From the NCBI RefSeq assembly GCF_013122565.1, contig NZ_CP053258.1: a stretch of DNA of 64,000 bases. The stretch is one strand, 5' to 3'. Position 1 is the first letter of the stretch; each line of letters begins with the position of its first letter. Position numbers and translations under genes: made by a program. The notes beneath the pieces were generated by a model that searched no databases, had not been told where the DNA came from, and saw nothing but the letters and a program-made list of their open reading frames with translations. This stretch comes from Escherichia coli. Lineage in GTDB: Bacteria > Pseudomonadota > Gammaproteobacteria > Enterobacterales > Enterobacteriaceae. Shown in pieces: positions 213 through 61,919 of this stretch.

Positions 213-3537
<3,325 letters not shown>

Positions 3538-3751
3538 CGCGCACCTCGTGGCTGATTATGGACGGCGTTATTGGCAAAGTGGAACAAGACTCACTCCCGG
3601 GTCAGCAAACTCGAAAAATTGACGCTCCCATTATTTGTGCTTTCGTTTTTTTCTATCCGCCAATAAACCCGTTTTTTTGTTGCTATTTAGCGCCTTTGTC
3701 TTATTGACTTACTGGTAGGCTTTGCTACCAGAAATTATCCGGGAGATGAAA
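3538..3751. promoter_or_regulatory. Divergent fliE / fliFGHI class 2 (FlhD4C2-dependent) promoter region
   Basis: 214-bp AT-rich spacer between divergent fliF (-) and fliE (+) starts; assigned from known flagellar regulon organisation, no motif explicitly matched. Confidence 0.5.
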
Positions 3752-4066
3752 ATGTCAGCGATACAGGGGATTGAAGGGGTTATCAGCCAGTTACAGGCTA
3801 CGGCGATGAGTGCGCGTGCACAGGAGTCCCTGCCACAACCGACCATTAGTTTTGCCGGGCAGCTGCACGCCGCGCTCGATCGCATAAGCGATACACAAAC
3901 AGCCGCCCGCACGCAGGCAGAAAAATTCACTCTCGGTGAACCCGGCGTGGCGTTAAACGATGTGATGACCGATATGCAAAAAGCCTCAGTTTCTATGCAA
4001 ATGGGGATTCAGGTGCGTAATAAGCTGGTGGCGGCGTATCAGGAAGTGATGAGCATGCAGGTATAG
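3752..4066 (+). CDS. fliE: Flagellar hook-basal body protein FliE
   Basis: ORF 3722..4066 trimmed to ATG at 3752 ([22 protein letters not shown]...), 104 aa; RBS gggag upstream. Confidence 0.9.
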
Positions 4067-4456
4067 GTTGTGTAACCTGTTGTTAATTACATCCGATCTC
4101 ACAGCGTGGGGCATGGATGGGGCAAACTCACTCTATTTCTGGTTTAAAATGGATACCTGATCATGAACGTTTTCTGCCATCCACGCTCCGTAACGCGATA
4201 ACCCCCTGAATATCAGAGTGTCTCATTTGACACATCACCACGTCGGATGTTGTTACGACCACAGACGCAACAGTAACCTCTGGATAATTTAATCTTTGTT
4301 GATGTTTTTATTCATATTCCGGGCTAGGGAAATAATCAGGCATAATTGTGTCACTGGAATAGAGGTTTCTTGTGGCGCATGTGGAAGGAGCGTCTACTAT
4401 TGTCTAATAGAGATTTCTTATTACGCAGTTTTGTTCATCACTAATCTCCAGGTTTA

Positions 4457-5125
4457 TCAAACAGGTTGAATTAACTCCGCGCCCTGGTTTTTAACATTAC
4501 CCACCGCGCGCGATACCGGGTGCCAGGTGAACTGGTTTGCTGACACACAACCACTGGTAGCGATTTCTGAGGCTTCTTTACCGCCAATATCTTGCCGCAT
4601 CCATTCCCGCGCAGCTTCTGGCGACAGAACCAGAGGGCGGCGGTCATGAATATCTACCAGACCCTGGTCTGCTGCTGCAGTGACGATCAAAAATCCTTCG
4701 GCTTCGTCACCACGCTCGAACGGTGTGCTACCTATCGCGGCCATAAAAATAGGTTGTCCATCAGCACGATAGATAAAAAAAGGCTGTTTTTTGTCGCCTT
4801 CTTTTTTCCACTCAAACCAGCCATCGGCAAAACAGATTGCCCGACCATGTTGCCAGAGCGGCTTAAACATGCGACTGGTTGCGGCAGTTTCTACGCGGGC
4901 GTTAATCAGCGGCGGTTTATCCCACCATCCGGGAGCATATCCCCAGAAAACCGGATCCAGATGAAGGTGTTCGTCACGTTCACTGAGCAGAAGGACTTTG
5001 GTTCCCGGCGCGACGTTGTATCTGCCAATGGGTTCGGGATCATAGGGAATATCGCGTTCAATATCTTCCGCGAGAAGCGCAAGGTAATCTTCACGCGTTT
5101 GGGATTGGGCAAAGCGTCCACACAT
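4457..5125 (-). CDS. yedK: SOS-response associated peptidase (SRAP/HMCES family, abasic-site processing) YedK
   Basis: ORF 4457..5218 trimmed to the MCGRFAQSQTREDYLALL... start at 5123..5125, 222 aa; N-terminal Cys2 is the hallmark of SRAP proteins. Confidence 0.88.
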   Translation of the reverse strand: MCGRFAQSQTREDYLALLAEDIERDIPYDPEPIGRYNVAPGTKVLLLSERDEHLHLDPVFWGYAPGWWDKPPLINARVETAATSRMFKPLWQHGRAICFADGWFEWKKEGDKKQPFFIYRADGQPIFMAAIGSTPFERGDEAEGFLIVTAAADQGLVDIHDRRPLVLSPEAAREWMRQDIGGKEASEIATSGCVSANQFTWHPVSRAVGNVKNQGAELIQPV

Positions 5126-5467: not shown

Positions 5468-6669
5468 GCGATCTCCTTAGCAGTCTGCGGTGCCGCACGG
5501 CGGAAGAAGCGTTTTTCCCAGCCGATAATCAACATCAGCGCAGCAAACAACAGCAAATATGTCACCAGCAGGCCACCCATCGGGCCAAAGGTTTTCAGCA
5601 GGTTAATTTTGTCCCAGTCGGTGGCCAGCGCCGGAGCGAAATCATCCCAGTAATACGCCAGAATCGTTGAGCCGATCACGTTGCCCAGACCGACCCACCA
5701 GTAGTGCACCTGGCCTTCTACCGCGCGGTACATCCAGCCGGTTTCGCAGCCGCCTGCCAGCACGATGCCAAAACCAAACAGTAAACCACCAATTACCGCG
5801 TTTGGTCCTGCCCACATGATTTTGGGTTCAACACCTAACTGTACGTAACTGAAGATCCCGATGGCACTCACCGCCATACCGATAATGATTGCTTTCGCCA
5901 TATGGGTACGTCCGGTGATCCACATATCGCGGAACGCCGAAGTAAAGCAGATTTGCGCACGTTCAATCAGTAAACCAAAGCCGACGCCAAACAGCATTGC
6001 CAGCCCCAGTTTTGGTTGGTTCATCGCCGTGAGCAGCGCCCAGCCCTGCATACCGAAAAAGACCAGCATCCCGAGACGAAAACGACGCCGCGCCTGATCC
6101 GGTTTTTGCGTCAGCGGTGAGGCGGCAGAAACTTTCTGCATTTTCACGGGAATACGGAAGATGGGCAGCAGGGTAAAGCGCGCGCCAAACCATGAACCAA
6201 TGGCAGTGGCGATGGCAAAGAACCAGGCATGCAGCGAGAACTGAGGAATACCGGTAAAGAACGCCGCCAGGTTACAGCCCATTGCCAGACGCGCGCCAAA
6301 ACCAGCGATAATACCGCCAATGATGGCCTGCATAATGCGGATACGGCTGCGTGGCATGCGCAGTTTGACATTGTTGGCCCACAGCGCTGCGGCAAAGCAG
6401 CCGCCAAACATACCGAGGATCATCATCCCGTCGATGCGGGTTAATGGCGATCCTTCCAGATGGATAATTTTAAAGTAACCCCACTCTTCAGCATGGACGC
6501 CGAACAGCTGCAGGAGCTGGCCGCCCCAACGGGTAAATTCACCCGTGACAGCCCAAAAGGTGCCAGTGATGCCAAAATAGTAAGTGGAGAGAATACCCGC
6601 CGCGATGACCGCGGGGATGGGCGCCCAGAATTTAATCAACCAGGCGTGTTTGAATTGCTGCCATGACAT
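5464..6669 (-). CDS. yedE: YedE/YeeE-family inner membrane transporter (selenium/sulfur-related)
   Basis: ORF 5464..6669, 401 aa, highly hydrophobic multi-TM protein; matches YedE in length and N-terminus; co-operonic with yedF. Confidence 0.88.
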   Translation of the reverse strand: MSWQQFKHAWLIKFWAPIPAVIAAGILSTYYFGITGTFWAVTGEFTRWGGQLLQLFGVHAEEWGYFKIIHLEGSPLTRIDGMMILGMFGGCFAAALWANNVKLRMPRSRIRIMQAIIGGIIAGFGARLAMGCNLAAFFTGIPQFSLHAWFFAIATAIGSWFGARFTLLPIFRIPVKMQKVSAASPLTQKPDQARRRFRLGMLVFFGMQGWALLTAMNQPKLGLAMLFGVGFGLLIERAQICFTSAFRDMWITGRTHMAKAIIIGMAVSAIGIFSYVQLGVEPKIMWAGPNAVIGGLLFGFGIVLAGGCETGWMYRAVEGQVHYWWVGLGNVIGSTILAYYWDDFAPALATDWDKINLLKTFGPMGGLLVTYLLLFAALMLIIGWEKRFFRRAAPQTAKEIA

Positions 6670-8867: not shown

Positions 8868-9233
8868 TCACGAGAAGTTATCTTGCGGAGCCAGCACAAA
8901 GCCGCCCTGATCGCCATAGGCACTTAACACCGATTTTTGCACCGATGACTGACCGACCAGTTTCGCCAGTTCATTCATCCGAATCTGTAATAACTGCTTT
9001 ACCTTGCTTTCGTTATCGAGAATCAGGCGCAGCATCGGGCGGAGCTGCTCCTGCATCGTGGTGGACGGGTCAATCTCATCAGTCAGATGTGCAATCTCCT
9101 GCACCGCATTCACATACGCCATTTCGCTGGCGATGAGTTCGTCCCATTGTTCTTCCGTTGCCAGGCGTAACATGAGCTGGCTTTTTTCGACGAGTTGTTG
9201 CCAGGCGAAATACAAATGCGGTGCGTGGTTCAT
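8868..9233 (-). CDS. fliT: Flagellar chaperone / anti-FlhDC factor FliT
   Basis: ORF 8868..9233, 121 aa; last gene of the fliD-fliS-fliT operon; matches FliT. Confidence 0.9.
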
Positions 9234-9643
9234 CAGACTGGGTCCTGAATCAAAGAAGGGGAGAGTAACGACTCTTTCCAGGCATCGGCAATATTGCGCA
9301 TTAATGCTTCCACTTCTTCGACTGCGGAGACATCGTTGCGTAAATTGGCTTGCAGCAAACGCCTGACCATATAGCTATAAAGAGCAATCAAGTTTTGGGT
9401 TAATTCGTCTTTGCTCTCTTCATCAAGACTCACCCGAAGTCCGTTCTCAATGATGTTGATCGCTTTTGACAAAGAGACGCCTTTGCCTTGCTGATTGTTG
9501 TCCTGCATAAACAGGCGCGCTCTAACCAGTGCGCTCAGCACTCCATCAAATAGCATGGTGACCAGCTGCTGCTGGCTGGCGCTCATTACGGCGCTTTCGA
9601 CGCCAATTTGTGCATAGGCCTGGGTGCCTTTTGCCGCGTACAT
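9233..9643 (-). CDS. fliS: Flagellin-specific chaperone FliS
   Basis: ORF 9233..9643, 136 aa, [34 protein letters not shown]...; matches FliS. Confidence 0.92.
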
Positions 9644-9658
9644 AGTTTCTCCTGAAGA

Positions 9659-11074
9659 TTATTTCGAGTTGCTATTTGAGGTGTCGAACTGCTGTGTCAG
9701 ATAGCTACTGGTGGAGTTAAGCGAGTTCATTAACACATCTAATTGGGTGAACTGGGCTTTATAGCGCGTCATTAAGGTATCGATACGCTCACTGGCTGCG
9801 TTGTACTGGTCGGTCAAATTATTAAGCGTTTTGCTGACGCCATCTTTTGCGGCCTGGATTATCCCGGTGGAAGAGAGCCAACTGGTCAGGTTGCTACTAA
9901 TGCCGGTGGTTACCCCTGTACTTTTACCGTCACCTATAAACATTTCACCGATGCCAGCGGCATCTTTTTTTAGCGCCGTTTGCAGTTTGTCAGTCGCGAT
10001 TTCCAGCTTGCCGGTACTGGCATCGCTGGTAATGCCAATCTGTGCCAGCGTTTTATAGTTTGAACTGCTGTGAGTATTGGCGAGCAAGGTTTTAAGCTGA
10101 GTCTGGATGGTACGCAGTGTGGAGTCACCGAGTAATGCGCCATTACTGGAGTCCTGACTTTCTGCTCCGGCATCGACAGCGGTGTATTTGGTTAAGCTAC
10201 TGAATGTATCCTGCAATGTGTTATAGGCATCCACCCATGCTTTGACCGCATTTTCAGCTTTGGATGTGTCTTTATTGATGGTCAGTGTCTGATTACCGGT
10301 GGTGACGTCATTCAGGTTGAGTGTGATATCTTCCAGCGCGTCGCTGATAGTGTTACTGCTGTTTTCAATCTCAACGTTATTGACTGTCAGTTTGGCGTTT
10401 TGCGCGGTGACGCTTTCAATCATGCCATTGCTGCTATCACCCGACGTTCCGTTGTAACCCATAAAACTTTCCAGGGCGCTGTCGCCGCTGACGCTAAGTT
10501 TCATAGCGTTATCGTTGCCCGTATCGTTAGCGGTGATGGACAGACGATATTCGCCGTTTCTCACATTGATGATACTGGCGCTGACACCAGCTTTGGCGTT
10601 GTTAATGGCATCGCGAATGCCGGAAAGTGACGAGTTAGCTGCGCTGATATCAATCGTGACCGGATCTTTACCGCCGCCTTGCTGGATGGTCAGTACGCTA
10701 TCGCTGGTGGCGATGGCAGCTTTACTGTCTTTTTGACTAATTTTTGTGGTCAGCGTTTGTGCCTGCGCCAGTTGGCTAACGCTAATGGTGTATTTCCCGG
10801 CAATCGCGCTGCCCGTGGTGGTGGCGCTGAAAGCCGATGAACTGCTGGTGGTTGAAGTGGCGGTAAATAAATCGGCTTTATTCAGTGCTGTGTTGGCTGT
10901 CTGGAAACTCTCTAGTGCACTTTTCAGCGTCCCGTAGGCGCTCAGTTTCGCGGTGTAAGAGCTTTGCTGTTTTGATATCGGCGTCAGGGTAGATTTTTCT
11001 GCCGCCTCCAGACTGTCAAGGATGCTGCTTAAATCCAGCCCCGACCCAACCCCAAGCGTTGAAATACTAGCCAT
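9659..11074 (-). CDS. fliD: Flagellar filament cap protein FliD (variant allele, 471 aa)
   Basis: ORF 9659..11074, MASISTLGVGSGLDLSSILDS...; conserved termini, divergent in the middle relative to K-12 FliD (468 aa by recollection). Confidence 0.9.
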   Translation of the reverse strand: MASISTLGVGSGLDLSSILDSLEAAEKSTLTPISKQQSSYTAKLSAYGTLKSALESFQTANTALNKADLFTATSTTSSSSAFSATTTGSAIAGKYTISVSQLAQAQTLTTKISQKDSKAAIATSDSVLTIQQGGGKDPVTIDISAANSSLSGIRDAINNAKAGVSASIINVRNGEYRLSITANDTGNDNAMKLSVSGDSALESFMGYNGTSGDSSNGMIESVTAQNAKLTVNNVEIENSSNTISDALEDITLNLNDVTTGNQTLTINKDTSKAENAVKAWVDAYNTLQDTFSSLTKYTAVDAGAESQDSSNGALLGDSTLRTIQTQLKTLLANTHSSSNYKTLAQIGITSDASTGKLEIATDKLQTALKKDAAGIGEMFIGDGKSTGVTTGISSNLTSWLSSTGIIQAAKDGVSKTLNNLTDQYNAASERIDTLMTRYKAQFTQLDVLMNSLNSTSSYLTQQFDTSNSNSK

Positions 11075-11116
11075 ATAAATTCCTTAATCATGCGACGTAT
11101 AGAACGAATACCGGGG

Positions 11117-11143
11117 TTATCGGCGTAAGCGGGGCAAAGTTTA
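11117..11143 (-). promoter_or_regulatory. sigma-28 (FliA) class 3 promoter for fliDST
   Basis: + strand reads ttatcggc-N11-aaagttta, i.e. on the minus strand TAAACTTT-N11-GCCGATAA, a near-perfect match to the sigma-28 consensus TAAAGTTT-N11-GCCGATAA. Confidence 0.7.
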
Positions 11144-11216
11144 CGATTTATTTTTTGGCTTAATGACACGAACAGCAACGAGGAAGGGGAGTATTTCGAC
11201 CGCTAGAAAAAAATTC

Positions 11217-11243
11217 TAAAGGTTGTGAGTGACCAGACGATAA
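11217..11243 (+). promoter_or_regulatory. sigma-28 (FliA) class 3 promoter for fliC
   Basis: taaaggtt-N11-gacgataa upstream of fliC; close to the sigma-28 consensus. Confidence 0.65.
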
Positions 11244-11319
11244 CAGGGTTGACGGCGACGAAGCCGAAGGGTGGAAGCCCAATACTTAAACCGTAGACTT
11301 GAAAACAGGAAAATGAATC

Positions 11320-12663
11320 ATGGCACAAGTCATTAATACCAACAGCCTCTCGCTGATCACTCAGAACAACATCAACAAAAACCAGTCTGCGCTGTCGACT
11401 TCTATCGAGCGCCTCTCTTCTGGTCTGCGCATTAACAGCGCTAAAGATGACGCTGCGGGCCAGGCGATTGCTAACCGCTTCACTTCTAACATCAAAGGTC
11501 TGACTCAGGCCGCACGTAACGCCAACGACGGTATCTCTCTGGCGCAGACCACTGAAGGCGCACTGTCTGAAATCAACAACAACTTGCAGCGTGTTCGTGA
11601 ACTGACCGTTCAGGCCACTACCGGTACTAACTCTGATTCTGACCTGTCTTCAATCCAGGACGAAATCAAATCCCGTCTCGATGAAATTGACCGCGTATCC
11701 GGTCAGACTCAGTTCAACGGCGTGAACGTACTGGCAAAAGATGGCTCGATGAAAATTCAGGTCGGTGCAAATGATGGTCAGACAATCAGCATTGATTTGC
11801 AGAAGATTGATTCTTCTACTTTAGGGTTAAATGGTTTTTCTGTTTCCAAAAATGCAGTATCTGTTGGTGATGCTATTACTCAATTGCCTGGCGAGACGGC
11901 AGCCGATGCACCAGTAACCATCAAGTTTGATGATTCAGTAAAAACTGATTTAAAACTGACCGATGCTTCAGGGTTAAGTCTGCATAACCTCAAAGATGAA
12001 AATGGTAATTTAACTAACCAGTATGTTGTACAGAATGGCGGAAAATCTTACGCTGCTACAGTCGCTGCCAATGGTAATGTTACGCTGAACAAAGCAAATG
12101 TAACCTACAGCGATGTCGCAAACGGTATTGATACCGCAACGCAGTCAGGCCAGTTAGTTCAGGTTGGTGCAGATTCTACCGGTACGCCAAAAGCATTCGT
12201 GTCTGTCCAAGGTAAAAGCTTTGGCATTGATGACGCCGCCTTGAAGAATAACACTGGTGATGCTACCGCTACTCCACCGGGAGCATCTGGGACAACAGTT
12301 GTCGCAGCGTCAATTCATCTGAGTACGGGCAAAAACTCTGTAGACGCTGATGTAACGGCTTCCACTGAATTCACAGGTGCTTCAACCAACGATCCACTGA
12401 CTCTGCTGGACAAAGCTATCGCATCTGTTGATAAATTCCGTTCTTCTTTGGGGGCGGTACAGAACCGTCTGAGCTCCGCTGTAACCAACCTGAACAACAC
12501 CACCACCAACCTGTCTGAAGCGCAGTCCCGTATTCAGGACGCCGACTATGCGACCGAAGTGTCCAACATGTCGAAAGCGCAGATTATCCAGCAGGCAGGT
12601 AACTCCGTGCTGTCCAAAGCTAACCAGGTACCGCAGCAGGTTCTGTCTCTGCTGCAGGGTTAA
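11320..12663 (+). CDS. fliC: Flagellin FliC (H-antigen), 447 aa, non-K-12 serotype
   Basis: ORF 11320..12663; conserved N-terminal (MAQVINTNSLSLITQNNINKNQSALSTSIERLSSGLRINSAKDDAAGQAIANRF...) and C-terminal (...QNRLSSAVTNLNNTTTNLSEAQSRIQDADYATEVSNMSKAQIIQQAGNSVLSKANQVPQQVLSLLQG) flagellin domains flank a distinct central region; K-12 FliC is 498 aa by recollection. Confidence 0.92.
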   Translation: MAQVINTNSLSLITQNNINKNQSALSTSIERLSSGLRINSAKDDAAGQAIANRFTSNIKGLTQAARNANDGISLAQTTEGALSEINNNLQRVRELTVQATTGTNSDSDLSSIQDEIKSRLDEIDRVSGQTQFNGVNVLAKDGSMKIQVGANDGQTISIDLQKIDSSTLGLNGFSVSKNAVSVGDAITQLPGETAADAPVTIKFDDSVKTDLKLTDASGLSLHNLKDENGNLTNQYVVQNGGKSYAATVAANGNVTLNKANVTYSDVANGIDTATQSGQLVQVGADSTGTPKAFVSVQGKSFGIDDAALKNNTGDATATPPGASGTTVVAASIHLSTGKNSVDADVTASTEFTGASTNDPLTLLDKAIASVDKFRSSLGAVQNRLSSAVTNLNNTTTNLSEAQSRIQDADYATEVSNMSKAQIIQQAGNSVLSKANQVPQQVLSLLQG

Positions 12664-12706
12664 TCGTCGTAACCTGATTAACTGAGACTGACGGCAACGC
12701 CAAATT

Positions 12707-12806
<100 letters not shown>

Positions 12807-12835
12807 ACATCAAGCGCAATTTGTCAGCAACGTGC

Positions 12836-12861
12836 TCCCCCGCCACCGGCGGGGTTTTTTC
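12836..12861 (+). terminator. Rho-independent terminator downstream of fliC
   Basis: GC-rich hairpin ccccgccaccggcgggg followed by a T run. Confidence 0.7.
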
Positions 12862-12930
12862 TGTCCGCAATTTACCGGTAACCCCCAAATAACCCCTCAT
12901 TTCACCCACTAATCGTCCGATTAAAAACCC

Positions 12931-12957
12931 TGCAGAAACGGATAATCATGCCGATAA
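12931..12957 (+). promoter_or_regulatory. Putative fliA promoter element (sigma-28 -10-like GCCGATAA at 12950..12957)
   Basis: Exact GCCGATAA 26 nt upstream of the fliA GTG; the -35 match is poor, so the assignment is tentative. Confidence 0.35.
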
Positions 12958-12982
12958 CTCATATAACGCAGGGCTGTTTATC

Positions 12983-13702
12983 GTGAATTCACTCTATACC
13001 GCTGAAGGTGTAATGGATAAACACTCGCTGTGGCAGCGTTATGTCCCGCTGGTGCGTCACGAAGCATTGCGCCTGCAGGTTCGACTGCCCGCGAGCGTGG
13101 AACTTGACGATCTGCTACAGGCGGGCGGCATTGGGTTACTTAATGCCGTCGAACGCTATGACGCCCTACAAGGAACGGCATTTACAACTTACGCAGTGCA
13201 GCGTATCCGTGGCGCTATGTTGGATGAACTTCGCAGCCGTGACTGGGTGCCGCGCAGCGTGCGACGCAACGCGCGTGAAGTGGCACAGGCAATAGGGCAA
13301 CTGGAGCAGGAACTTGGCCGCAACGCCACGGAAACTGAGGTAGCGGAACGTTTAGGGATCGATATTGCCGATTATCGCCAAATGTTGCTCGACACCAATA
13401 ACAGCCAGCTCTTCTCCTACGATGAGTGGCGCGAAGAGCACGGCGATAGCATCGAACTGGTTACTGATGATCATCAGCGAGAAAACCCGCTACAACAACT
13501 GCTGGACAGTAATCTGCGTCAGCGGGTGATGGAAGCCATCGAAACGTTGCCGGAGCGCGAAAAACTGGTATTAACCCTCTATTACCAGGAAGAGCTGAAT
13601 CTCAAAGAGATTGGCGCGGTGCTGGAGGTCGGGGAATCGCGGGTCAGTCAGTTACACAGCCAGGCTATTAAACGGTTACGCACTAAACTGGGTAAGTTAT
13701 AA
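12983..13702 (+). CDS. fliA: Flagellar sigma factor sigma-28 (FliA)
   Basis: ORF 12983..13702 (GTG start), 239 aa, ...NSLYTAEGVMDKHSLWQRYVPLVRHEALRL...; full-length match to FliA. Confidence 0.95.
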   Translation: MNSLYTAEGVMDKHSLWQRYVPLVRHEALRLQVRLPASVELDDLLQAGGIGLLNAVERYDALQGTAFTTYAVQRIRGAMLDELRSRDWVPRSVRRNAREVAQAIGQLEQELGRNATETEVAERLGIDIADYRQMLLDTNNSQLFSYDEWREEHGDSIELVTDDHQRENPLQQLLDSNLRQRVMEAIETLPEREKLVLTLYYQEELNLKEIGAVLEVGESRVSQLHSQAIKRLRTKLGKL

Positions 13703-13747
13703 CGTCAGTAAATGCCGCACTTTAACTTTGACTACCAGGAGTTCTTA

Positions 13748-14299
13748 ATGATGGTGCAGCACCTGAAAAGACGGCCATTAAGCCGCTATCTTAAAGACTT
13801 TAAACACAGCCAGACCCATTGCGCGCATTGCCGTAAATTACTCGATCGCATTACCTTAGTTCGCGACGGCAAAATAGTGAATAAAATCGAGATTTCCCGC
13901 CTGGACACGCTGCTTGATGAAAATGGCTGGCAAACGGAACAAAAATCATGGGCGGCATTGTGCCGATTTTGCGGTGATTTACATTGCAAAACGCAGAGTG
14001 ATTTTTTCGATATTATCGGCTTTAAGCAATTTCTTTTTGAGCAAACTGAAATGAGCCCTGGTACGGTGCGTGAATATGTCGTTCGTCTGCGCCGTTTGGG
14101 GAATCATCTACATGAGCAAAATATTTCCCTCGATCAGCTGCAGGACGGTTTCCTTGATGAAATCCTCGCCCCGTGGCTGCCCACCACCAGCACCAACAAT
14201 TACCGCATCGCATTACGGAAGTATCAACACTATCAGCGTCAAACGTGTACCGGACTTGTGCAGAAATCCTCCAGCCTGCCTGCTTCTGATATATATTAA
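13748..14299 (+). CDS. fliZ: Flagellar regulatory protein FliZ
   Basis: ORF 13712..14299 trimmed to MMVQHLKRRPLSRYLKDF... at 13748, 183 aa. Confidence 0.9.
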   Translation: MMVQHLKRRPLSRYLKDFKHSQTHCAHCRKLLDRITLVRDGKIVNKIEISRLDTLLDENGWQTEQKSWAALCRFCGDLHCKTQSDFFDIIGFKQFLFEQTEMSPGTVREYVVRLRRLGNHLHEQNISLDQLQDGFLDEILAPWLPTTSTNNYRIALRKYQHYQRQTCTGLVQKSSSLPASDIY

Positions 14300-18954: not shown

Positions 18955-19411
18955 TTATTTTCCTCGTCATGTTGCAATGAAAATTTGCGGTGAAAAATGT
19001 TAAGGCGGCGGAGTATACCATAAGCTTTGCTAAAAATAGCAGTGGTTGTTTTTTGAGCGTGCCGTCAACGGTGCTATTAAATGCGTTAATATAATGACCA
19101 ATAAATATTTTTATCATGAATGTTTTTGCCCGTATTGTTCGGGTTAATTAATGTTACATATTCAGCGGGCTGATTTTCATTTTTGCTGAATAAAGGTAAT
19201 TTTTGTCACATTTCGTCGCAGGGCTTACTGTGAAACGATCCGGTAAGCCGTTGGTGACGGGCGTGACCATAACTGTGGACAATCGAATTGACAAAAACGA
19301 GAGAAAAATCGAATACCCACCATTTTTAACGTTTCAAAGTTGCAATAAAAACCGCTAATATACGAATGACTAACTATCAGTAGCGTTATCCCTATTTCTG
19401 GAGATATTCCT

Positions 19412-22653: not shown

Positions 22654-22729
<76 letters not shown>

Positions 22730-22782
22730 GTTTAAAAGACATCGGCGTCAGCGGATGTCTGGCTGAAAGGCCTGAAGAATTT

Positions 22783-22856
22783 GGCGCGTTAACAAAGCGG
22801 TTATGTAGCGGATTGCAAATCCGTCTAGTCCGGTTCGACTCCGGAACGCGCCTCCA
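22783..22856 (+). tRNA. cysT: tRNA-Cys (anticodon GCA)
   Basis: ggcgcgttaacaaagcggttatgtagcggattGCAaatccgtctagtccggttcgactccggaacgcgcctcca. Confidence 0.95.
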
Positions 22857-22868
22857 CTTTCTTCCCGA

Positions 22869-22955
22869 GCCCGGATGGTGGAATCGGTAGACACAAGGGA
22901 TTTAAAATCCCTCGGCGTTCGCGCTGTGCGGGTTCAAGTCCCGCTCCGGGTACCA
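22869..22955 (+). tRNA. leuZ: tRNA-Leu (anticodon TAA), long variable arm
   Basis: gcccggatggtggaatcggtagacacaagggattTAAaatccctcggcgttcgcgctgtgcgggttcaagtcccgctccgggtacca. Confidence 0.95.
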
Positions 22956-31228: not shown

Positions 31229-34581
<3,353 letters not shown>

Positions 34582-36148: not shown

Positions 36149-36727
36149 ATGAGTGAAAAAAGCATTGTTCAGGAAGCGCGGGATATTCAGCTGGCAATGG
36201 AATTGATCACCCTGGGCGCTCGTTTGCAGATGCTGGAAAGCGAAACACAGTTAAGTCGCGGACGCCTGATAAAACTCTATAAAGAACTGCGCGGAAGCCC
36301 ACCGCCGAAAGGCATGCTGCCATTCTCAACCGACTGGTTTATGACCTGGGAACAAAACGTTCATGCTTCGATGTTCTGTAACGCATGGCAGTTTTTACTG
36401 AAAACAGGCTTGTGTAATGGCGTCGATGCAGTGATCAAAGCCTACCGTTTATACCTTGAACAGTGCCCGCAAGCAGAAGACGGACCGCTGCTGGCATTAA
36501 CCCGTGCCTGGACATTGGTGCGGTTTGTTGAAAGTGGATTACTGCAACTTTCCAGCTGCAACTGCTGCGGCGGCAATTTTATTACCCACGCTCACCAGCC
36601 TGTTGGCAGCTTTGCCTGCAGCTTATGTCAACCGCCATCCCGGGCAGTAAAAAGACGTAAACTTTCCCAGAATCCTGCCGATATTATCCCACAACTGCTG
36701 GATGAACAGAGAGTACAGGCTGTTTAA
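36149..36727 (+). CDS. flhC: Flagellar master regulator subunit FlhC
   Basis: ORF 36149..36727, 192 aa, [27 protein letters not shown]...; zinc-binding cysteines near the C-terminus. Confidence 0.95.
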
Positions 36728-41243: not shown

Positions 41244-41270
41244 TAAAGTTTCCCCCCTTCTTGCCGATAA
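41244..41270 (+). promoter_or_regulatory. sigma-28 class 3 promoter of the tar-tap-cheRBYZ operon
   Basis: taaagttt-N11-gccgataa: exact match to both halves of the sigma-28 consensus with 11-nt spacer, ~30 nt upstream of tar. Confidence 0.78.
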
Positions 41271-41301
41271 CGAGATTAACTTGTTTTCAGGAAGGTGCCT
41301 T

Positions 41302-42963
41302 ATGATTAACCGTATCCGCGTAGTCACGCTGTTGGTAATGGTGCTGGGGGTATTCGCACTGTTACAGCTTATTTCCGGCAGTCTGTTTTTTTCTTCCCTT
41401 CACCATAGCCAGAAGAGCTTTGTGGTTTCCAATCAATTACGGGAACAGCAGGGCGAGCTGACGTCAACCTGGGATTTAATGCTGCAAACGCGCATTAACC
41501 TGAGTCGTTCAGCGGTGCGGATGATGATGGATTCCTCCAATCAACAAAGTAACGCCAAAGTTGAATTGCTCGATAGCGCCAGGAAAACATTGGCCCAGGC
41601 CGCGACTCATTATAAAAAATTCAAAAGCATGGCACCGTTACCTGAAATGGTCGCTACCAGTCGTAATATTGATGAAAAATATAAAAACTATCACACAGCG
41701 TTAACTGAACTGATTGATTATCTTGATTATGGCAATACTGGAGCTTATTTCGCTCAGCCAACCCAGGGAATGCAAAATGCAATGGGCGAAGCGTTTGCTC
41801 AGTACGCCCTCAGCAGTGAAAAACTGTATCGCGATATCGTCACTGACAACGCAGATGATTACCGATTTGCCCAGTGGCAACTGGCGGTTATCGCGCTGGT
41901 GGTGGTATTGATTCTGCTGGTGGCGTGGTACGGCATTCGTCGTATGTTGCTTACACCGCTGGCAAAAATTATTGCGCATATTCGCGAAATCGCCGGTGGT
42001 AACCTGGCGAATACTCTGACCATTGACGGACGCAGTGAAATGGGCGACCTGGCGCAGAGCGTTTCACATATGCAACGCTCTTTGACTGACACCGTCACTC
42101 ATGTGCGTGAAGGTTCAGATGCCATCTATGCCGGTACCCGTGAAATTGCGGCGGGCAACACCGATCTTTCCTCCCGTACGGAACAGCAGGCATCGGCGCT
42201 GGAAGAAACTGCCGCCAGCATGGAGCAGCTCACCGCAACAGTGAAGCAAAACGCCGATAACGCCCGCCAGGCCTCGCAACTGGCGCAAAGTGCCTCCGAC
42301 ACCGCCCAGCATGGCGGCAAAGTAGTGGATGGCGTAGTGAAAACGATGCATGAGATCGCCGATAGTTCGAAGAAAATCGCCGACATTATCAGCGTTATCG
42401 ACGGTATTGCCTTCCAGACTAATATCCTCGCGCTGAATGCCGCTGTTGAAGCCGCGCGAGCGGGTGAACAGGGCCGTGGTTTTGCCGTGGTGGCGGGCGA
42501 AGTGCGTAATCTTGCCAGCCGCAGCGCCCAGGCGGCAAAAGAGATCAAAGCCCTCATTGAAGACTCCGTCTCGCGCGTTGATACCGGTTCGGTGCTGGTC
42601 GAAAGCGCCGGGGAAACAATGAACAATATCGTCAATGCTGTCACTCGCGTGACTGACATTATGGGCGAGATTGCATCGGCATCGGATGAACAGAGCCGTG
42701 GCATCGATCAAGTCGCATTGGCGGTTTCGGAAATGGATCGCGTCACGCAACAGAACGCATCGCTGGTGCAGGAATCAGCTGCCGCCGCAGCTGCGCTGGA
42801 AGAACAGGCCAGTCGTTTAACGCAAGCGGTTTCCGCGTTTCGTCTGGCAGCCAGCCCACTCACCAATAAACCGCAAACACCATCCCGTCCTGCCAGTGAG
42901 CAACCACCGGCACAGCCACGACTGCGAATTGCTGAACAAGATCCAAACTGGGAAACATTTTGA
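41302..42963 (+). CDS. tar: Methyl-accepting chemotaxis protein II, Tar (aspartate/maltose)
   Basis: ORF 41281..42963 trimmed to [22 protein letters not shown]... at 41302, 553 aa; C-terminal NWETF pentapeptide (CheR/CheB tether). Confidence 0.92.
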
Positions 42964-46955: not shown

Positions 46956-47600
46956 ATGATGCAACCATCAATCAAACCTGCTGACGAGCATTCAGCTGGC
47001 GATATCATTGCGCGCATCGGTAGCCTGACGCGTATGCTGCGCGACAGTTTGCGGGAACTGGGACTGGATCAGGCCATTGCCGAAGCGGCGGAAGCCATCC
47101 CCGATGCGCGCGATCGTTTGTACTATGTTGTGCAGATGACCGCCCAGGCTGCGGAGCGGGCGCTGAACAGTGTTGAGGCGTCACAACCGCATCAGGATCA
47201 AATGGAGAAATCAGCAAAAGCGTTAACCCAACGTTGGGATGACTGGTTTGCCGATCCGATTGACCTTGCCGACGCCCGTGAACTGGTAACAGATACGCGG
47301 CAATTTCTGGCAGATGTACCCGGACATACCAGCTTTACTAACGCGCAACTGCTGGAAATCATGATGGCACAGGATTTTCAGGATCTCACCGGGCAGGTTA
47401 TTAAGCGGATGATGGATGTCATTCAGGAGATCGAACGTCAGTTGCTGATGGTGTTGTTGGAAAACATCCCGGAACAGGAGTCGCGTCCAAAACGTGAAAA
47501 CCAGAGTTTGCTTAATGGACCTCAGGTCGATACCAGCAAAGCTGGTGTGGTAGCCAGTCAGGATCAGGTGGACGATTTGTTGGATAGTCTTGGATTTTGA
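46956..47600 (+). CDS. cheZ: CheY-P phosphatase CheZ
   Basis: ORF 46926..47600 trimmed to [24 protein letters not shown]... at 46956, 214 aa. Confidence 0.92.
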
Positions 47601-47618
47601 TTTGTATTGCCTGAACTT

Positions 47619-47643
47619 CGGCCTGCGCGATGATGCCAGGCCG
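47619..47643. terminator. Hairpin between convergent cheZ and the inserted nucleotidyltransferase gene
   Basis: Inverted repeat cggcctg...caggccg 19 nt after the cheZ stop; no strong T-run, so weak. Confidence 0.35.
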
Positions 47644-47687
47644 ATAGCAGGGTGGCGAGTATCGTTCAGGGAGTACGTGGAGGATGG

Positions 47688-48440
47688 TTATTTGTAGTTT
47701 GATAATTTTAGATCAGCGAAGCGTGTTTGTTGCGCCAGTAAATTTATCAACGCATTAAATTGTGAACGAGAAAATGACGATGACTGGTAGTGCAGTACAT
47801 CGTAATGATGCCAAACTTCATAACGTTTTTTCGTCAGTTCATGGTGCAAGAAATGACAGAGTTCCGGACCTAAACTCTTTACCTGCTTAGTAAAAATAGT
47901 GCGTAAAATCTTCGTTACCGAACCGCTTGGATTGGGGTTAGTATGAAGAACAAGTTCAAGATGTCTGCGATTTAAGTCGGTCAAATAATTATCTTTACTG
48001 ATAATTTTTTCACTACGTAGATCATAGAGCACGGCATCCCAACTCATTAGCGTAGTGTTTAACAGACTTGATTCATCCTCACAAAATATAAGTTTTTCCC
48101 GAAATGCCCATGTCTCATTGAGGTTCCAGATATCAAATTCGAAGTCGTGATAACGAAAACGGATCCCACCGAACTTATTAAAACGCAGTTGTTTAACGGG
48201 CAATTCAGCCAATGTCCGGAAGAGTTCCTCACGGGAGCGACCGATGACGATATCAAGGTCTGAAGAAAATCCTTCGACGCCAAACAAGCCTAAGTCACGC
48301 ACCATCCCGCCAAAAATCCAGGCCGGACAGGAACAGGCCAGAGTATCAAGTAATACTCTGGCTTTCTTATGCTCATCACTAAGCGTAAAAAAATCGGCGA
48401 TACGCTGTTCAAGCTGTTGGGTGTTTGAGACCACATTCAT
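47688..48440 (-). CDS. Pol-beta-superfamily nucleotidyltransferase (CCA/MNT/SMODS-like fold), function unknown; downstream gene of inserted operon
   Basis: ORF 47688..48440, 250 aa; nucleotidyltransferase signature ...AWIFGGMVRDLGLFGVEGFSSDLDIVIG... (hG[GS]-x9-13-DhDh) with a third acidic residue in ...HDFEFDIWNL...; start overlaps upstream gene by 32 nt; no equivalent gene between cheZ and flhB in K-12 as I recall; AT-rich. Confidence 0.7.
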   Translation of the reverse strand: MNVVSNTQQLEQRIADFFTLSDEHKKARVLLDTLACSCPAWIFGGMVRDLGLFGVEGFSSDLDIVIGRSREELFRTLAELPVKQLRFNKFGGIRFRYHDFEFDIWNLNETWAFREKLIFCEDESSLLNTTLMSWDAVLYDLRSEKIISKDNYLTDLNRRHLELVLHTNPNPSGSVTKILRTIFTKQVKSLGPELCHFLHHELTKKRYEVWHHYDVLHYQSSSFSRSQFNALINLLAQQTRFADLKLSNYK

Positions 48441-49917
48441 ACAGTGATTTTAGCTCATCGTGAAGGCGCATTAAATAACTATCCGTCATGCCTGAGATTG
48501 CGTCGGTAAGCAACTGCGCTTCTTTATAAAGAATAGGGAGTGTATTGGCGGGATCTTCAAACACACGGCGATAATTTTCAGAGATTGTCCCGTAAGCATA
48601 GCGACCAAAGGGAGTATCCGATAGGTATTCTTCACGAGAAACAAAAAGGTTATCTGCAGACGCGGACTCGCGTTCTCCGTCTCGTTCTTTCTTTGTTTTG
48701 TGTCCATGGATGCCAATCCAGAGCATATCCATCAAGTTAGTAATGTAATTAGACCCCCTAAGTTCCAGTTGCAAGACTGAACGATGAAGGTAGCCTCGTG
48801 TTCGGTCGAACATTTTCAGGGCAGTGCAGAGAGCGTGACCTTTGCTTTGCGAGATTAAATCTTTGAACGGGCAGTCACGCTGCATCAGCGTGGGTAATTG
48901 TTCGCGAAAGGCTTCAACTACGGCATTAATCAATGCACTGGTGGCATACACTCTGAACATTTGCATACTGAGTTCATTAATTTCTGCCGGTGAAAGTGCA
49001 TTTCTTTGCTCTTTCCAGGCGTCATTTTTGGCCTCTACAGCTTTAATAACATTTTCAATTACATCGTTCGACTCGGATTGTGACATCAAAAAATCACGCA
49101 AATCCTGGTATGAGGCAAATCCTTTCTTGATGGTATCTTCTGCGTCAAGCACAGAGTAGGCAATATCGTCGCAAGCTTCCATTATCCAGGTAAATGGGTG
49201 GCGGCAACCGGCATCATTACCTGGTACGCCAAGGCCCGTTTGCTGCCAGACATCCATGACAACCTCATGCTCAGAATAGAAAAAACCGTGTTTTTTCCAA
49301 TGTTTGTCCGATGAATATGAAGCTCGGGGATATTTGATCAGTGCAGCCAGCGTGGCATAGGTCAGATTCAGACCAAAGTTATCGTTAATAATTTGTAATT
49401 TGGTAACCAGGCGCAGGGTTTGTGAGTTTCCATCAAATTGCAGAAAGTCGTTATATATTTCGCTGTTTACTTCTTTATCAAGAAGGCCTGGAAGATTTTT
49501 ATTAAACCATGCGCGCATCGCTGCTTCACCTTGATGCCCAAATGGTGGATTACCGAGATCGTGTGCCAGTCCGATCGCTGCTAACAGAGCAGGAACGTCG
49601 CGTTCAACGACAATCCCCGTGGGTATTTCGCCAAAGATGTGTTCCTTCATCTCGAAAGCGAGCCTCATTCCTATTCCGCGAGCAAAGTTTGCTACTTCGT
49701 GAGAATGAGTCAGCCTCGTCCGTATACTGTCATTTTGATCTAACGGGAAAACTTGTGTTTTATCCGCCAGCCGACGAGTTGGCGCAGCAAAAAGTAATCG
49801 GTCGTAATCCCGCTCGATCTCTTGTCTTCCGCGAGCAAGGGGATGTAAAAATTCTATGCTGGTTTTTTTTAGATTATCTTTTCGACGGTTGCAGTTAAGC
49901 AATTGTTGCCATTCCAT
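48409..49917 (-). CDS. Dgt-family dNTP (dGTP) triphosphohydrolase paralogue (HD domain); upstream gene of inserted operon
   Basis: ORF 48409..49917, 502 aa; Dgt hallmark motifs: DKTQVFPLDQNDSIRTRLTHSHEV (HD histidine), GLAHDLGNPPFGHQGE (HD aspartate), FDGNSQTLRLV, HPFTWIMEACDDIAYSVLDAEDTIKKG, LTDAISGMTDSYL; RBS aagg 7-8 nt before ATG; AT-rich. Confidence 0.82.
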   Translation of the reverse strand: MEWQQLLNCNRRKDNLKKTSIEFLHPLARGRQEIERDYDRLLFAAPTRRLADKTQVFPLDQNDSIRTRLTHSHEVANFARGIGMRLAFEMKEHIFGEIPTGIVVERDVPALLAAIGLAHDLGNPPFGHQGEAAMRAWFNKNLPGLLDKEVNSEIYNDFLQFDGNSQTLRLVTKLQIINDNFGLNLTYATLAALIKYPRASYSSDKHWKKHGFFYSEHEVVMDVWQQTGLGVPGNDAGCRHPFTWIMEACDDIAYSVLDAEDTIKKGFASYQDLRDFLMSQSESNDVIENVIKAVEAKNDAWKEQRNALSPAEINELSMQMFRVYATSALINAVVEAFREQLPTLMQRDCPFKDLISQSKGHALCTALKMFDRTRGYLHRSVLQLELRGSNYITNLMDMLWIGIHGHKTKKERDGERESASADNLFVSREEYLSDTPFGRYAYGTISENYRRVFEDPANTLPILYKEAQLLTDAISGMTDSYLMRLHDELKSLYECGLKHPTA

Positions 49918-50153
49918 TTGATCGCCTTTGTAATAATTTAATTATTAGCAAACTAACAGAGAGACGGTGGGCGATTCTATAGGCTAAATGGCTAAATATC
50001 AGAACTGGAAAATGGTTCGCAAAACGTTCTGCAACTGAACCTATTTTTTGCATAAACGTCCTAAATCCCGCCTGTTTTGCCCCTTACTCAAACCATTGAA
50101 CGCTTTGCGCTCTGGCATCATTTACGCTTAATACTCTTTCCAGGATTGGCGAC

Positions 50154-51302
50154 GTGTCTGACGAGAGCGACGACAAAACAGAAGCCCCCACACCTCACCG
50201 ACTAGAAAAAGCGCGGGAAGAGGGGCAAATCCCGCGTTCCCGTGAACTGACCTCGCTGCTGATTTTGCTGGTGGGCGTGTGTGTTATCTGGTTTGGCGGT
50301 GTGTCGCTGGCCCGTAGATTGTCGGGCATGCTCTCCGCTGGGCTGCATTTTGATCACAGTATTATCAATGACCCGAATCTGATCCTCGGGCAAATTATTC
50401 TGCTGATCAGAGAAGCCATGCTGGCGCTGCTGCCGCTGATTAGCGGCGTGGTGCTGGTGGCGCTCATTTCTCCGGTCATGCTGGGAGGGCTGGTATTTAG
50501 CGGAAAATCCTTGCAGCCGAAGTTTTCCAAACTCAACCCGCTACCGGGCATAAAACGGATGTTCTCGGCACAGACTGGCGCGGAGTTGCTTAAAGCAATT
50601 TTGAAAACCATCCTGGTTGGCAGCGTGACGGGGTTTTTTCTCTGGCATCACTGGCCGCAGATGATGCGCTTAATGGCCGAGTCTCCGATTACCGCCATGG
50701 GTAATGCGATGGATTTGGTAGGGCTATGCGCACTGCTGGTGGTGCTTGGTGTCATTCCAATGGTGGGATTTGACGTCTTTTTCCAAATCTTCAGCCACCT
50801 GAAAAAGCTGCGAATGTCGCGGCAGGATATTCGTGATGAGTTCAAACAAAGCGAAGGCGACCCCCATGTTAAAGGACGGATCCGTCAGATGCAGCGAGCT
50901 GCCGCACGGCGTCGGATGATGGCCGATGTGCCGAAAGCGGATGTCATTGTCAATAACCCGACCCACTATTCGGTAGCGTTGCAGTATGACGAAAACAAAA
51001 TGAGCGCACCGAAAGTGGTCGCTAAAGGTGCAGGGCTGGTCGCGCTGCGCATTCGTGAAATTGGCGCTGAAAATAACGTCCCGACGCTTGAAGCGCCGCC
51101 GCTGGCGCGAGCGCTGTATCGACATGCGGAGATTGGTCAACAAATCCCGGGTCAACTGTACGCCGCGGTGGCGGAAGTGCTGGCCTGGGTCTGGCAACTG
51201 AAACGCTGGCGTCTGGCTGGTGGACAGCGTCCTGTACAACCTACTCATCTTCCGGTGCCGGAAGCCCTGGATTTTATTAACGAGAAACCGACCCATGAGT
51301 AA
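50154..51302 (+). CDS. flhB: Flagellar type III export apparatus protein FlhB
   Basis: ORF 50154..51302 (GTG start), 382 aa, ..SDESDDKTEAPTPHRLEKAREEGQIPRSREL...; NPTH autocleavage motif present (VIVNNPTHYSVAL). Confidence 0.92.
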   Translation: MSDESDDKTEAPTPHRLEKAREEGQIPRSRELTSLLILLVGVCVIWFGGVSLARRLSGMLSAGLHFDHSIINDPNLILGQIILLIREAMLALLPLISGVVLVALISPVMLGGLVFSGKSLQPKFSKLNPLPGIKRMFSAQTGAELLKAILKTILVGSVTGFFLWHHWPQMMRLMAESPITAMGNAMDLVGLCALLVVLGVIPMVGFDVFFQIFSHLKKLRMSRQDIRDEFKQSEGDPHVKGRIRQMQRAAARRRMMADVPKADVIVNNPTHYSVALQYDENKMSAPKVVAKGAGLVALRIREIGAENNVPTLEAPPLARALYRHAEIGQQIPGQLYAAVAEVLAWVWQLKRWRLAGGQRPVQPTHLPVPEALDFINEKPTHE

Positions 51303-57071: not shown

Positions 57072-57827
<756 letters not shown>

Positions 57828-57873
57828 TTTTTACCGTTGCATCATGTCGCCCAATATGATGCTTGCTCGTACC

Positions 57874-57907
57874 AGGCCCCTGCAATTTCAACAGGGGCCT
57901 TTTTTTA
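57874..57907 (+). terminator. Rho-independent terminator after cutC
   Basis: Hairpin aggcccctgcaatttcaacaggggcct followed by ttttttt. Confidence 0.72.
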
Positions 57908-61820: not shown

Positions 61821-61919
61821 GCCTGATGCGCTATGCTTATCAGGCCTACATAGTCCCTGCAATATATTGAATTAGCAAGGTTTTGTAGGCCGGATAAGGC
61901 GTTCACGCCGCATCCGGCA
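61821..61919. repeat. BIME: two inverted REP units
   Basis: gcctgatgcgctatgcttatcaggcctaca (61821..61850) and tgtaggccggataaggcgttcacgccgcatccggca (61884..61919); near-identical to the pair downstream of fliC. Confidence 0.8.

Follow-up and report, generated by a model that had tools for sequence, protein, structure and literature searches.

In the flagellar cascade, FlhD4C2 activates the class 2 promoters, fliA among them, and FlgM sequesters FliA (sigma-28) until the hook-basal body exports FlgM, after which free FliA-RNA polymerase initiates transcription. Promoters of the sigma-28/sigma-D type carry a long and highly conserved -10 element containing CGATA. The closest described counterparts of the promoters reported here are PfliC, PfliD, Ptar, PmotA, and PfliA of Escherichia coli K-12, and the K-12 FliA ChIP-seq sites give the majority consensus TAAAG(A/T)TT-N11-GCCGATAA (Fitzgerald, Bonocora, and Wade 2014, PMC4183435). 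In K-12, deletion of fliA lowers expression of fliC from 2319 to 11, of tar from 251 to 0, and of motA from 302 to 1, and the expression of fliA itself also collapses (PMC4183435). The FliA promoters of Salmonella and the SigD promoters of Bacillus subtilis (TAAA-N15-GCCGATAA type) have the same bipartite architecture; the promoters described below represent the enterobacterial form, with nothing notable setting them apart. These are textbook sites, mapped genome-wide in K-12 in 2014, and their presence here is a correct but ordinary finding.

The window, a stretch of 64,000 nucleotides from an E. coli genome (contig NZ_CP053258.1), corresponds to flagellar regions II and IIIa, running in the opposite direction to K-12, as judged by the order and lengths of the ORFs, family matches, and BLAST against complete E. 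coli genomes. Its first half contains fliF, fliE, yedK, yedE, yedD, amyA, fliTSD and the divergent fliC, fliAZ, and tcyJ, and further on uvrYC, pgsA, and three tRNAs. The second half contains araFGH, otsBA, uspC, flhDC, motAB-cheAW, tar-tap-cheRBYZ, an island, and flhBAE, followed further along by argS and then by torYZ and cmoBA. Apart from the yedL-yedN segment, the fliD-fliC cassette, and the island between cheZ and flhB, the whole window is collinear with K-12 BW25113 (~98% identity). In the yedK-fliE gap, 66 bp (4334-4399) stand in place of the ~1.9 kb that in K-12 hold yedL and the frameshifted DUF5503/yedN pseudogene. The three tRNAs are located at 22654-22952 (+), and their K-12 counterparts are annotated as Gly, Cys, and Leu. 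An Rfam scan of the window returned only C0465, MicL, ES036, and these tRNAs, Rfam holding no MotR or FliX families; the expected MicL sRNA lies at 57599-57906 (+, 371 bits) and the expected ES036 sRNA at 61842-61884 (-).

The preliminary description had placed sigma-28 elements in front of fliD, fliC, and tar, and reading of the sequence found all three where it put them, on the strands it named. The fliDST element (11117..11143, minus strand) is composed of the -35 element TAAACTTT (11143-11136), the 11-nt spacer GCCCCGCTTAC, and the -10 element GCCGATAA (11124-11117), with one mismatch to the consensus TAAAGTTT-N11-GCCGATAA. It precedes fliD, the first gene of fliDST (9659..11074, minus strand), which encodes a full-length protein of 471 aa and is a diverged allele with ~70% nucleotide identity to K-12. 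Transcription is predicted to start near 11109, giving a 5' UTR of ~35 nt ahead of the ATG at 11074. The fliC element (11217..11243, plus strand) consists of the -35 element TAAAGGTT, the 11-nt spacer GTGAGTGACCA, and the -10 element GACGATAA, with two mismatches to the same consensus. The flagellin gene fliC (11320..12663, plus strand) is full length (447 aa) and of a non-K-12 H type; its predicted start near 11251 would leave a 5' UTR of ~69 nt ahead of the ATG at 11320. The tar-tap-cheRBYZ element (41244..41270, plus strand), TAAAGTTT-CCCCCCTTCTT-GCCGATAA, matches the consensus at 16 of 16 positions, exactly as had been claimed, and is followed by the tar ATG at 41302. The distance from the end of the -10 element to the start codon is 42 nt for fliD, 76 nt for fliC, and 31 nt for tar, and each site stands 25-160 nt ahead of the operon expected for it, in the matching orientation. 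The divergent fliD and fliC promoters do not overlap, and their -35 elements face each other at a distance of 73 bp. Around the tar promoter, the Rfam candidate sRNA C0465 (41177-41254, minus strand, 111.6 bits) covers the terminator hairpin of cheW and, on the strand opposite tar, overlaps its -35 element.

All three elements are orthologous to FliA ChIP-seq sites mapped in K-12 (PMC4183435). The window and K-12 share the genes, their order and orientation, and the 11-nt spacer, and the core elements are the same for fliC, tar, motA, fliA, and otsA. The ortholog of the fliD promoter is the K-12 site TAAACTTTGCGCAATTCAGACCGATAAC (fold-above-threshold (FAT) score 43), whose -10 element is ACCGATAA with an A, whereas the window has the consensus G in GCCGATAA. 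At fliC, the strongest FliA site in K-12 (FAT 110; PMC4183435), the spacer differs at 7 of 11 positions, and the fliD spacer is likewise largely unlike that of K-12. The tar promoter is a single spacer base apart from its K-12 counterpart (FAT 57), which alone among 50 K-12 ChIP sites has no mismatch to the consensus.

We consider it about 95% probable that these elements are the sigma-28 (FliA) promoters of fliDST, fliC, and tar-tap-cheRBYZ, recognised by FliA-RNA polymerase and firing late. This assignment builds on what is seen directly, that is, the elements themselves, their number above chance expectation, the ChIP-mapped K-12 sites to which they are orthologous, the selective conservation of their cores, and an intact fliA. 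FliA-RNA polymerase would read the TAAAGTTT-like -35 element and the extended GCCGATAA-like -10 element, 11 nt apart, and would start a few bases downstream. FliA would be supplied by the FlhDC-activated fliA operon and kept inactive by FlgM until FlgM is exported through the hook-basal body. The three promoters of this strain would thus depend on FliA and fire late, because FliA is inactive before FlgM export, and the late products would be flagellin, the filament cap and chaperones, and chemoreceptor and signalling proteins.

A consensus search allowing at most three mismatches on both strands of the 64 kb yielded five sites, compared with 0.60 expected and a maximum of two in 100 dinucleotide shuffles. 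The two sites beyond fliD, fliC, and tar are located at 36658-36684(+) in flhC and at 33426-33452(-) in otsA. We also scanned the window with a log-odds position weight matrix (PWM) built from 44 of the 52 FliA ChIP-seq motifs in Table 2 of PMC4183435, leaving out two sites that its authors consider doubtful and the six sites that belong to this genomic stretch; the motif sequences of that table are the same in the published correction. The seven highest scores among ~128,000 positions belong to tar, motA, fliD, otsA, fliA, yedE, and fliC, and hits of at least 15 bits number six, compared with 0.53 in shuffles. The tar site (27.1 bits, span 41244-41271) and the fliD site (19.9 bits, span 11116-11143) exceed the 95th percentile of 18.8 bits for the best score in dinucleotide-shuffled windows, which is 14.7 +/- 2.0 bits on average. 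The fliC site scores 13.7 bits (span 11217-11244; 17.0 bits over the core positions only), inside the chance range for 64 kb. It is credible because of its position, orthology, and conservation, and not by score alone; in K-12 it is the strongest FliA site despite this modest match to the matrix. Thus tar and fliD are significant by score alone, and fliC, fliA, and otsA are credible through orthology and context.

Six of the seven top hits, all but yedE, are identical or core-identical to K-12 ChIP-seq sites. The K-12 counterpart of the window, scanned with the same matrix, returned the same set, and all six K-12 FliA sites of this stretch are kept. The yedE antisense match (5502-5529, plus strand; GGAAGAAG-N11-GCCGATAAT; 15.4 bits) was rejected as a matrix false positive, or as a site below the ChIP threshold, because the same sequence is found in K-12 and is absent from the ChIP-seq list. 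A match so conserved and yet without a ChIP peak means that sequence alone is insufficient to call a sigma-28 site, and the trust to be placed in the matrix is calibrated by this one conserved false positive at ~15 bits. Such false positives, with scores similar to those of the genuine sites, together with shuffled windows whose best scores of 14.7 +/- 2.0 bits lie above that of fliC, are what speaks for reading the fliD, fliC, and tar matches as chance likenesses to the consensus with no promoter function. We give this reading almost no credence: an exact 16/16 match is expected by arithmetic ~3e-5 times in 128,000 positions, and each of the three matches precedes the late flagellar operon to which it belongs, has a ChIP-bound ortholog, and is conserved specifically in its core.

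Spacers of 9-13 nt gave additional high scorers, for example 14012-14037(-) with a 9-nt spacer. These were rejected because none precedes a gene that would fit and the spacer is 11 nt in all 50 ChIP sites. In K-12 BW25113, an 18-bit core match resembling a sigma-28 site, TAACGTAT-N11-GCCGATATC, is located at ~1989192 near yecU/yecF and is not in the ChIP list; the window, where the corresponding part is ~19100-19400, contains no equivalent match reaching 12 bits.

The fliD and fliC promoters reside in a segment that is strongly diverged from K-12. Within the cassette (~9600-12400), nucleotide identity to K-12 is 68-78%, compared with 96-100% in the flanks. In the sliding comparison it is 68-78% over ~9,600-11,250 and low again in the variable middle of fliC. 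Given this drop within highly similar flanks, the whole fliD-promoter-fliC cassette is a distinct allele. Two strongly divergent classes of the fliD/fliC intergenic region exist in E. coli: identity to the window is at least 95% in 1,325 complete genomes and only ~70% in 3,187 others, K-12 among them. When the window is aligned with K-12, the same base is found at 31 of 32 core positions, at 133 of 191 positions elsewhere in the intergenic region, and at 9 of 22 spacer positions; the Fisher test gives p = 5e-6 for the core against the spacers and p = 1.3e-4 for the core against the rest. This pattern is upheld across six strains of the two allele classes. The sole difference in the core is the first base of the fliD -10 element, which is G in the window, O19:H7, and CRE1493, and A only in K-12. 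These comparisons indicate that the core elements of the promoters are under purifying selection relative to their surroundings. The locus thus resembles a natural mutagenesis experiment, with ~30% divergence around the promoters and the 16 core bases of each essentially untouched. For annotation, its value lies in the late flagellar promoters of the window all being present despite the diverged fliD-fliC (H-antigen) cassette.

Also invariant in the six strains are the A-tract GAAAAAAATTC, ~25 nt downstream of each -10 element, and a central block, GAGTATTTCG. The A-tract (11206..11216, plus strand) is located directly 5' of the fliC -35 element, is invariant in the alignments of both allele classes, and may serve as an UP-element-like contact. 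A 19-bp indel is found between the two promoters (window 11200-11206; alignment columns 134-152), where K-12-class alleles contain ACAAAAAATGGCTGTTT(T/G)T, which is missing here. Because of this indel, the -35 elements are separated by 73 bp in the window and by 92 bp in K-12. In E. coli 2015C-3121, the fliD sigma-28 promoter carries an IS1A insertion; homology to other alleles begins inside the -35 element, and other sequence takes the place of the -10 side (locus 1-600). Separately, a megablast of the stretch 9000-14000 finds matches at 25 places in the median E. coli genome, and the multi-copy sub-segment within it is probably an intergenic repeat of the REP/BIME type.

The fliD and fliC promoters had been labelled class 3, which needs qualification for fliDST. 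In K-12 the fliDST promoter is occupied by FlhD and FlhC (ChIP-qPCR), and fliD expression falls from 633 to 3 in flhD or flhC deletions. In the fliA deletion it falls only to 356 (PMC4183435). The operon is of dual class 2/3 in K-12, because FlhDC is present at the promoter and deletion of fliA only lowers expression, and by analogy the class 3 label would tell only part of the story for the minus-strand promoter of the window. It is indeed probable that the sigma-28 element of fliDST is secondary and that a class 2 promoter of this intergenic region, using sigma-70 and activated by FlhDC, accounts for most of the transcription, as the occupancy and the much stronger effect of losing FlhD or FlhC in K-12 suggest. 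These data come from K-12 under one growth condition, however, and the window allele differs from K-12 in carrying the consensus -10 element and in lacking the 19-bp stretch; on account of these two differences, the balance of inputs at fliDST may differ from that in K-12. A comparison by eye of the fliD upstream region with the Stafford-type consensus gave partial FlhDC half-sites only, none of them convincing, the motif being degenerate.

Besides the three promoters named in the preliminary description, whose list was right as far as it went, the window contains sigma-28 sites at motA, fliA, and antisense to otsA that it had missed. The motAB-cheAW promoter (36658..36684, plus strand) is located inside the 3' end of flhC, scores 22.9 bits (span to 36685), and is identical to the K-12 site (FAT 101); this promoter also makes the MotR sRNA (PMC10578931). 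The sigma-28 element of the complex fliA (fliAZ) promoter (12931..12957, plus strand), TGCAGAAA-N11-GCCGATAA, scores 15.9 bits (span to 12958) and is likewise identical to K-12 (FAT 91). The weak intragenic site antisense to otsA (33426..33452, minus strand) scores 16.1 bits (span from 33425) and is identical to its K-12 counterpart (FAT 2), for which a transcript was not detected and otsA expression was unchanged. We lean towards the view that some sites, such as the otsA antisense site, are bound by the FliA holoenzyme without giving a stable transcript, or give an unstable non-coding RNA, and act at most as a sink for FliA. Besides the low FAT value and the unchanged expression of otsA, this view is favoured by the K-12 data at large, in which 30 of 52 FliA sites are intragenic, most of them without a detectable transcript. 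It does not extend to fliC, tar, and motA, since the expression of these operons is lost in the fliA deletion (PMC4183435).

The sigma-28 gene fliA (12983..13702, plus strand) is full length (239 aa; NF005413, 363.5 bits with a cut-off of 201, residues 2-238), and family matches in the window indicate that flhD and flhC are full length too. With full-length fliC and fliD and the six retained K-12 FliA sites added, all FliA sites and flagellar genes open to checking in the window are intact. The earlier statement that the FliA regulon is intact overreaches beyond this, because most of the regulon (flgM, flgKL, tsr, aer, ycgR, and others) is located outside the window.

A more interesting by-product is the neighbouring island between cheZ and flhB, which encodes a Clover system in an unusually conserved position. 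It had been described as an inserted island at 47688..49917. An island is present, and these numbers are the limits of its ORFs, cloA (48409-49917, minus strand) and cloB (47688-48440, minus strand); comparison with the island-free E. coli HS places the left boundary of this 2.4-kb segment at 47615, 14 nt past the cheZ stop codon, and the right boundary near 50056 (about 50053-50059). The island takes the place of ~90 bp that include a REP-like hairpin in island-free strains, and ahead of flhB the window has only the last ~94 bp before the GTG in common with those strains. The island is found in 106 of 5,426 complete E. coli genomes. The convergent gap between cheZ and cloB holds a GC-rich hairpin (UCGGCCUG...CAGGCCGA; 47618-47644) where island-free strains have the REP-like one. 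Its stability is significant on either strand (z = -3.6 and -4.5), but it has no U-tract and was not called by the terminator scan.

CloA (502 aa) matches the PADLOC dGTPase model (E = 5e-71) and is an HD-domain dNTPase that has both the HD motif and the catalytic HE dyad. Along its entire length it shares 66% identity (E = 4.5e-190) with Salmonella CloA, whose cryo-EM structures (PDB 9p8s-9p8v) are octamers with eight chains each. All six catalytic and metal-binding residues are kept: H71, H119, D120, H128, E131, and D250 align with H69, H117, D118, H126, E129, and D242 of the Salmonella protein. Salmonella H263, a tetramer contact, is Q in the window CloA. The structure codes are printed as 8P9S-8P9V in PMC12265719, probably by transposition.

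The cloB ORF (250 aa) overlaps cloA by 32 nt. CloB has no match in Pfam, NCBIfam, or PADLOC, and a PDB sequence search gave none at E <= 1. Its AlphaFold2 model (pLDDT 92) adopts a Pol-beta nucleotidyltransferase fold, with class II CCA-adding enzymes as the closest structures, and D61, D63, and D103 are invariant in 30 homologs, forming the [D/E]h[D/E]...h[D/E]h active site. The modelled fold, the active-site residues, and the adjacency to cloA mark CloB as a predicted nucleotidyltransferase. By homology, the island is the Clover anti-phage system, composed of the CloA dGTPase and the CloB nucleotidyltransferase. In Clover, dTTP activates the dGTPase CloA and p3diT, made by CloB, restrains it, and the two genes form an operon with overlapping ORFs (Yamaguchi et al. 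2025 preprint, PMC12265719), as in the window. The preprint makes no mention of flagellar genes, and in this it differs from the clade of the window, which adjoins cheZ.

The earlier observation that the inspected part of the island's upstream region has no sigma-28 element was borne out by the PWM scan of 49918..50153 on either strand with spacers of 9-13 nt, in which the best score was 4.3 bits, so that no sigma-28 element stands upstream of the island. A site inside the island (49474-49501, minus strand, 12.5 bits) was rejected, as its -10 element is without CCGA and its score over core positions only is below 9.7 bits. A sigma-70 scan upstream of cloA gave a single 9/12 match (50002-49974, minus strand), no better than shuffles and so no indication of a promoter. 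The FlhDC ChIP peak of flhBAE in K-12 maps ~64 bp upstream of flhB when the IS1 offset between MG1655 and BW25113 is allowed for; this corresponds to ~50090, just inside the retained part.

Loci of other genera were compared with window 46956-51302, and the cloA-cloB pair is located beside cheZ in seven of the eight lineages compared. It is convergent with cheZ in Enterobacter hormaechei, Cronobacter dublinensis, Pseudescherichia, Pseudenterobacter, and two unassigned contigs (a metagenome and a read-archive assembly), and among these cheZ-linked lineages outside E. coli, all but one have the pair between cheZ and flhB. In Atlantibacter only, the pair is found in a typical defence-island context. 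Since the same gene pair is found in the same place in other genera, the earlier word 'inserted' is doubtful. Between lineages, identity is 43-65% for CloB, 85-92% for CheZ, and 92-95% for CheB, a pattern that would fit either a fast-evolving old resident or a hotspot that repeatedly captures the same module.

When the spacer between cloA and flhB is aligned between genera, homology is confined to the ~100 bp adjoining flhB. There is no sign of a shared regulatory element, because the island-proximal part of this spacer is not conserved. Likewise, the cloA upstream regions of Enterobacter, Cronobacter, and Atlantibacter contain no credible sigma-28 site. A 10.6-bit match upstream of Enterobacter cloA, with the -10 element GCCGATTT, was rejected; it falls within the FlhDC-box region close to flhB, and E. 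coli does not share it. A regulatory link between Clover and the flagellar genes may exist, and we found nothing positive in its support. It is very unlikely that Clover is a long-term resident of the cheZ|flhB gap of Enterobacteriaceae that is wired to the flagellar cascade without a sigma-28 promoter of its own. Such wiring could take the form of sigma-28 read-through from tar-tap-cheRBYZ antisense into cloBA, with only a hairpin without a U-tract between them, or of divergent use of the flhB FlhDC site, which abuts the island boundary. If true, either arrangement would tune a dGTP-depleting immunity to the motility state.

Loss of CloB, not of CloA, has been reported as the toxic event (PMC12265719), which makes disruption of cloA beside an intact cloB worth recording. 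In one Enterobacter genome, cloA is interrupted by an IS3-family transposase (locus 2365-5038) and cloB is intact. The Pseudenterobacter cloA is split into two ORFs (locus 2606-4050), again with an intact cloB.
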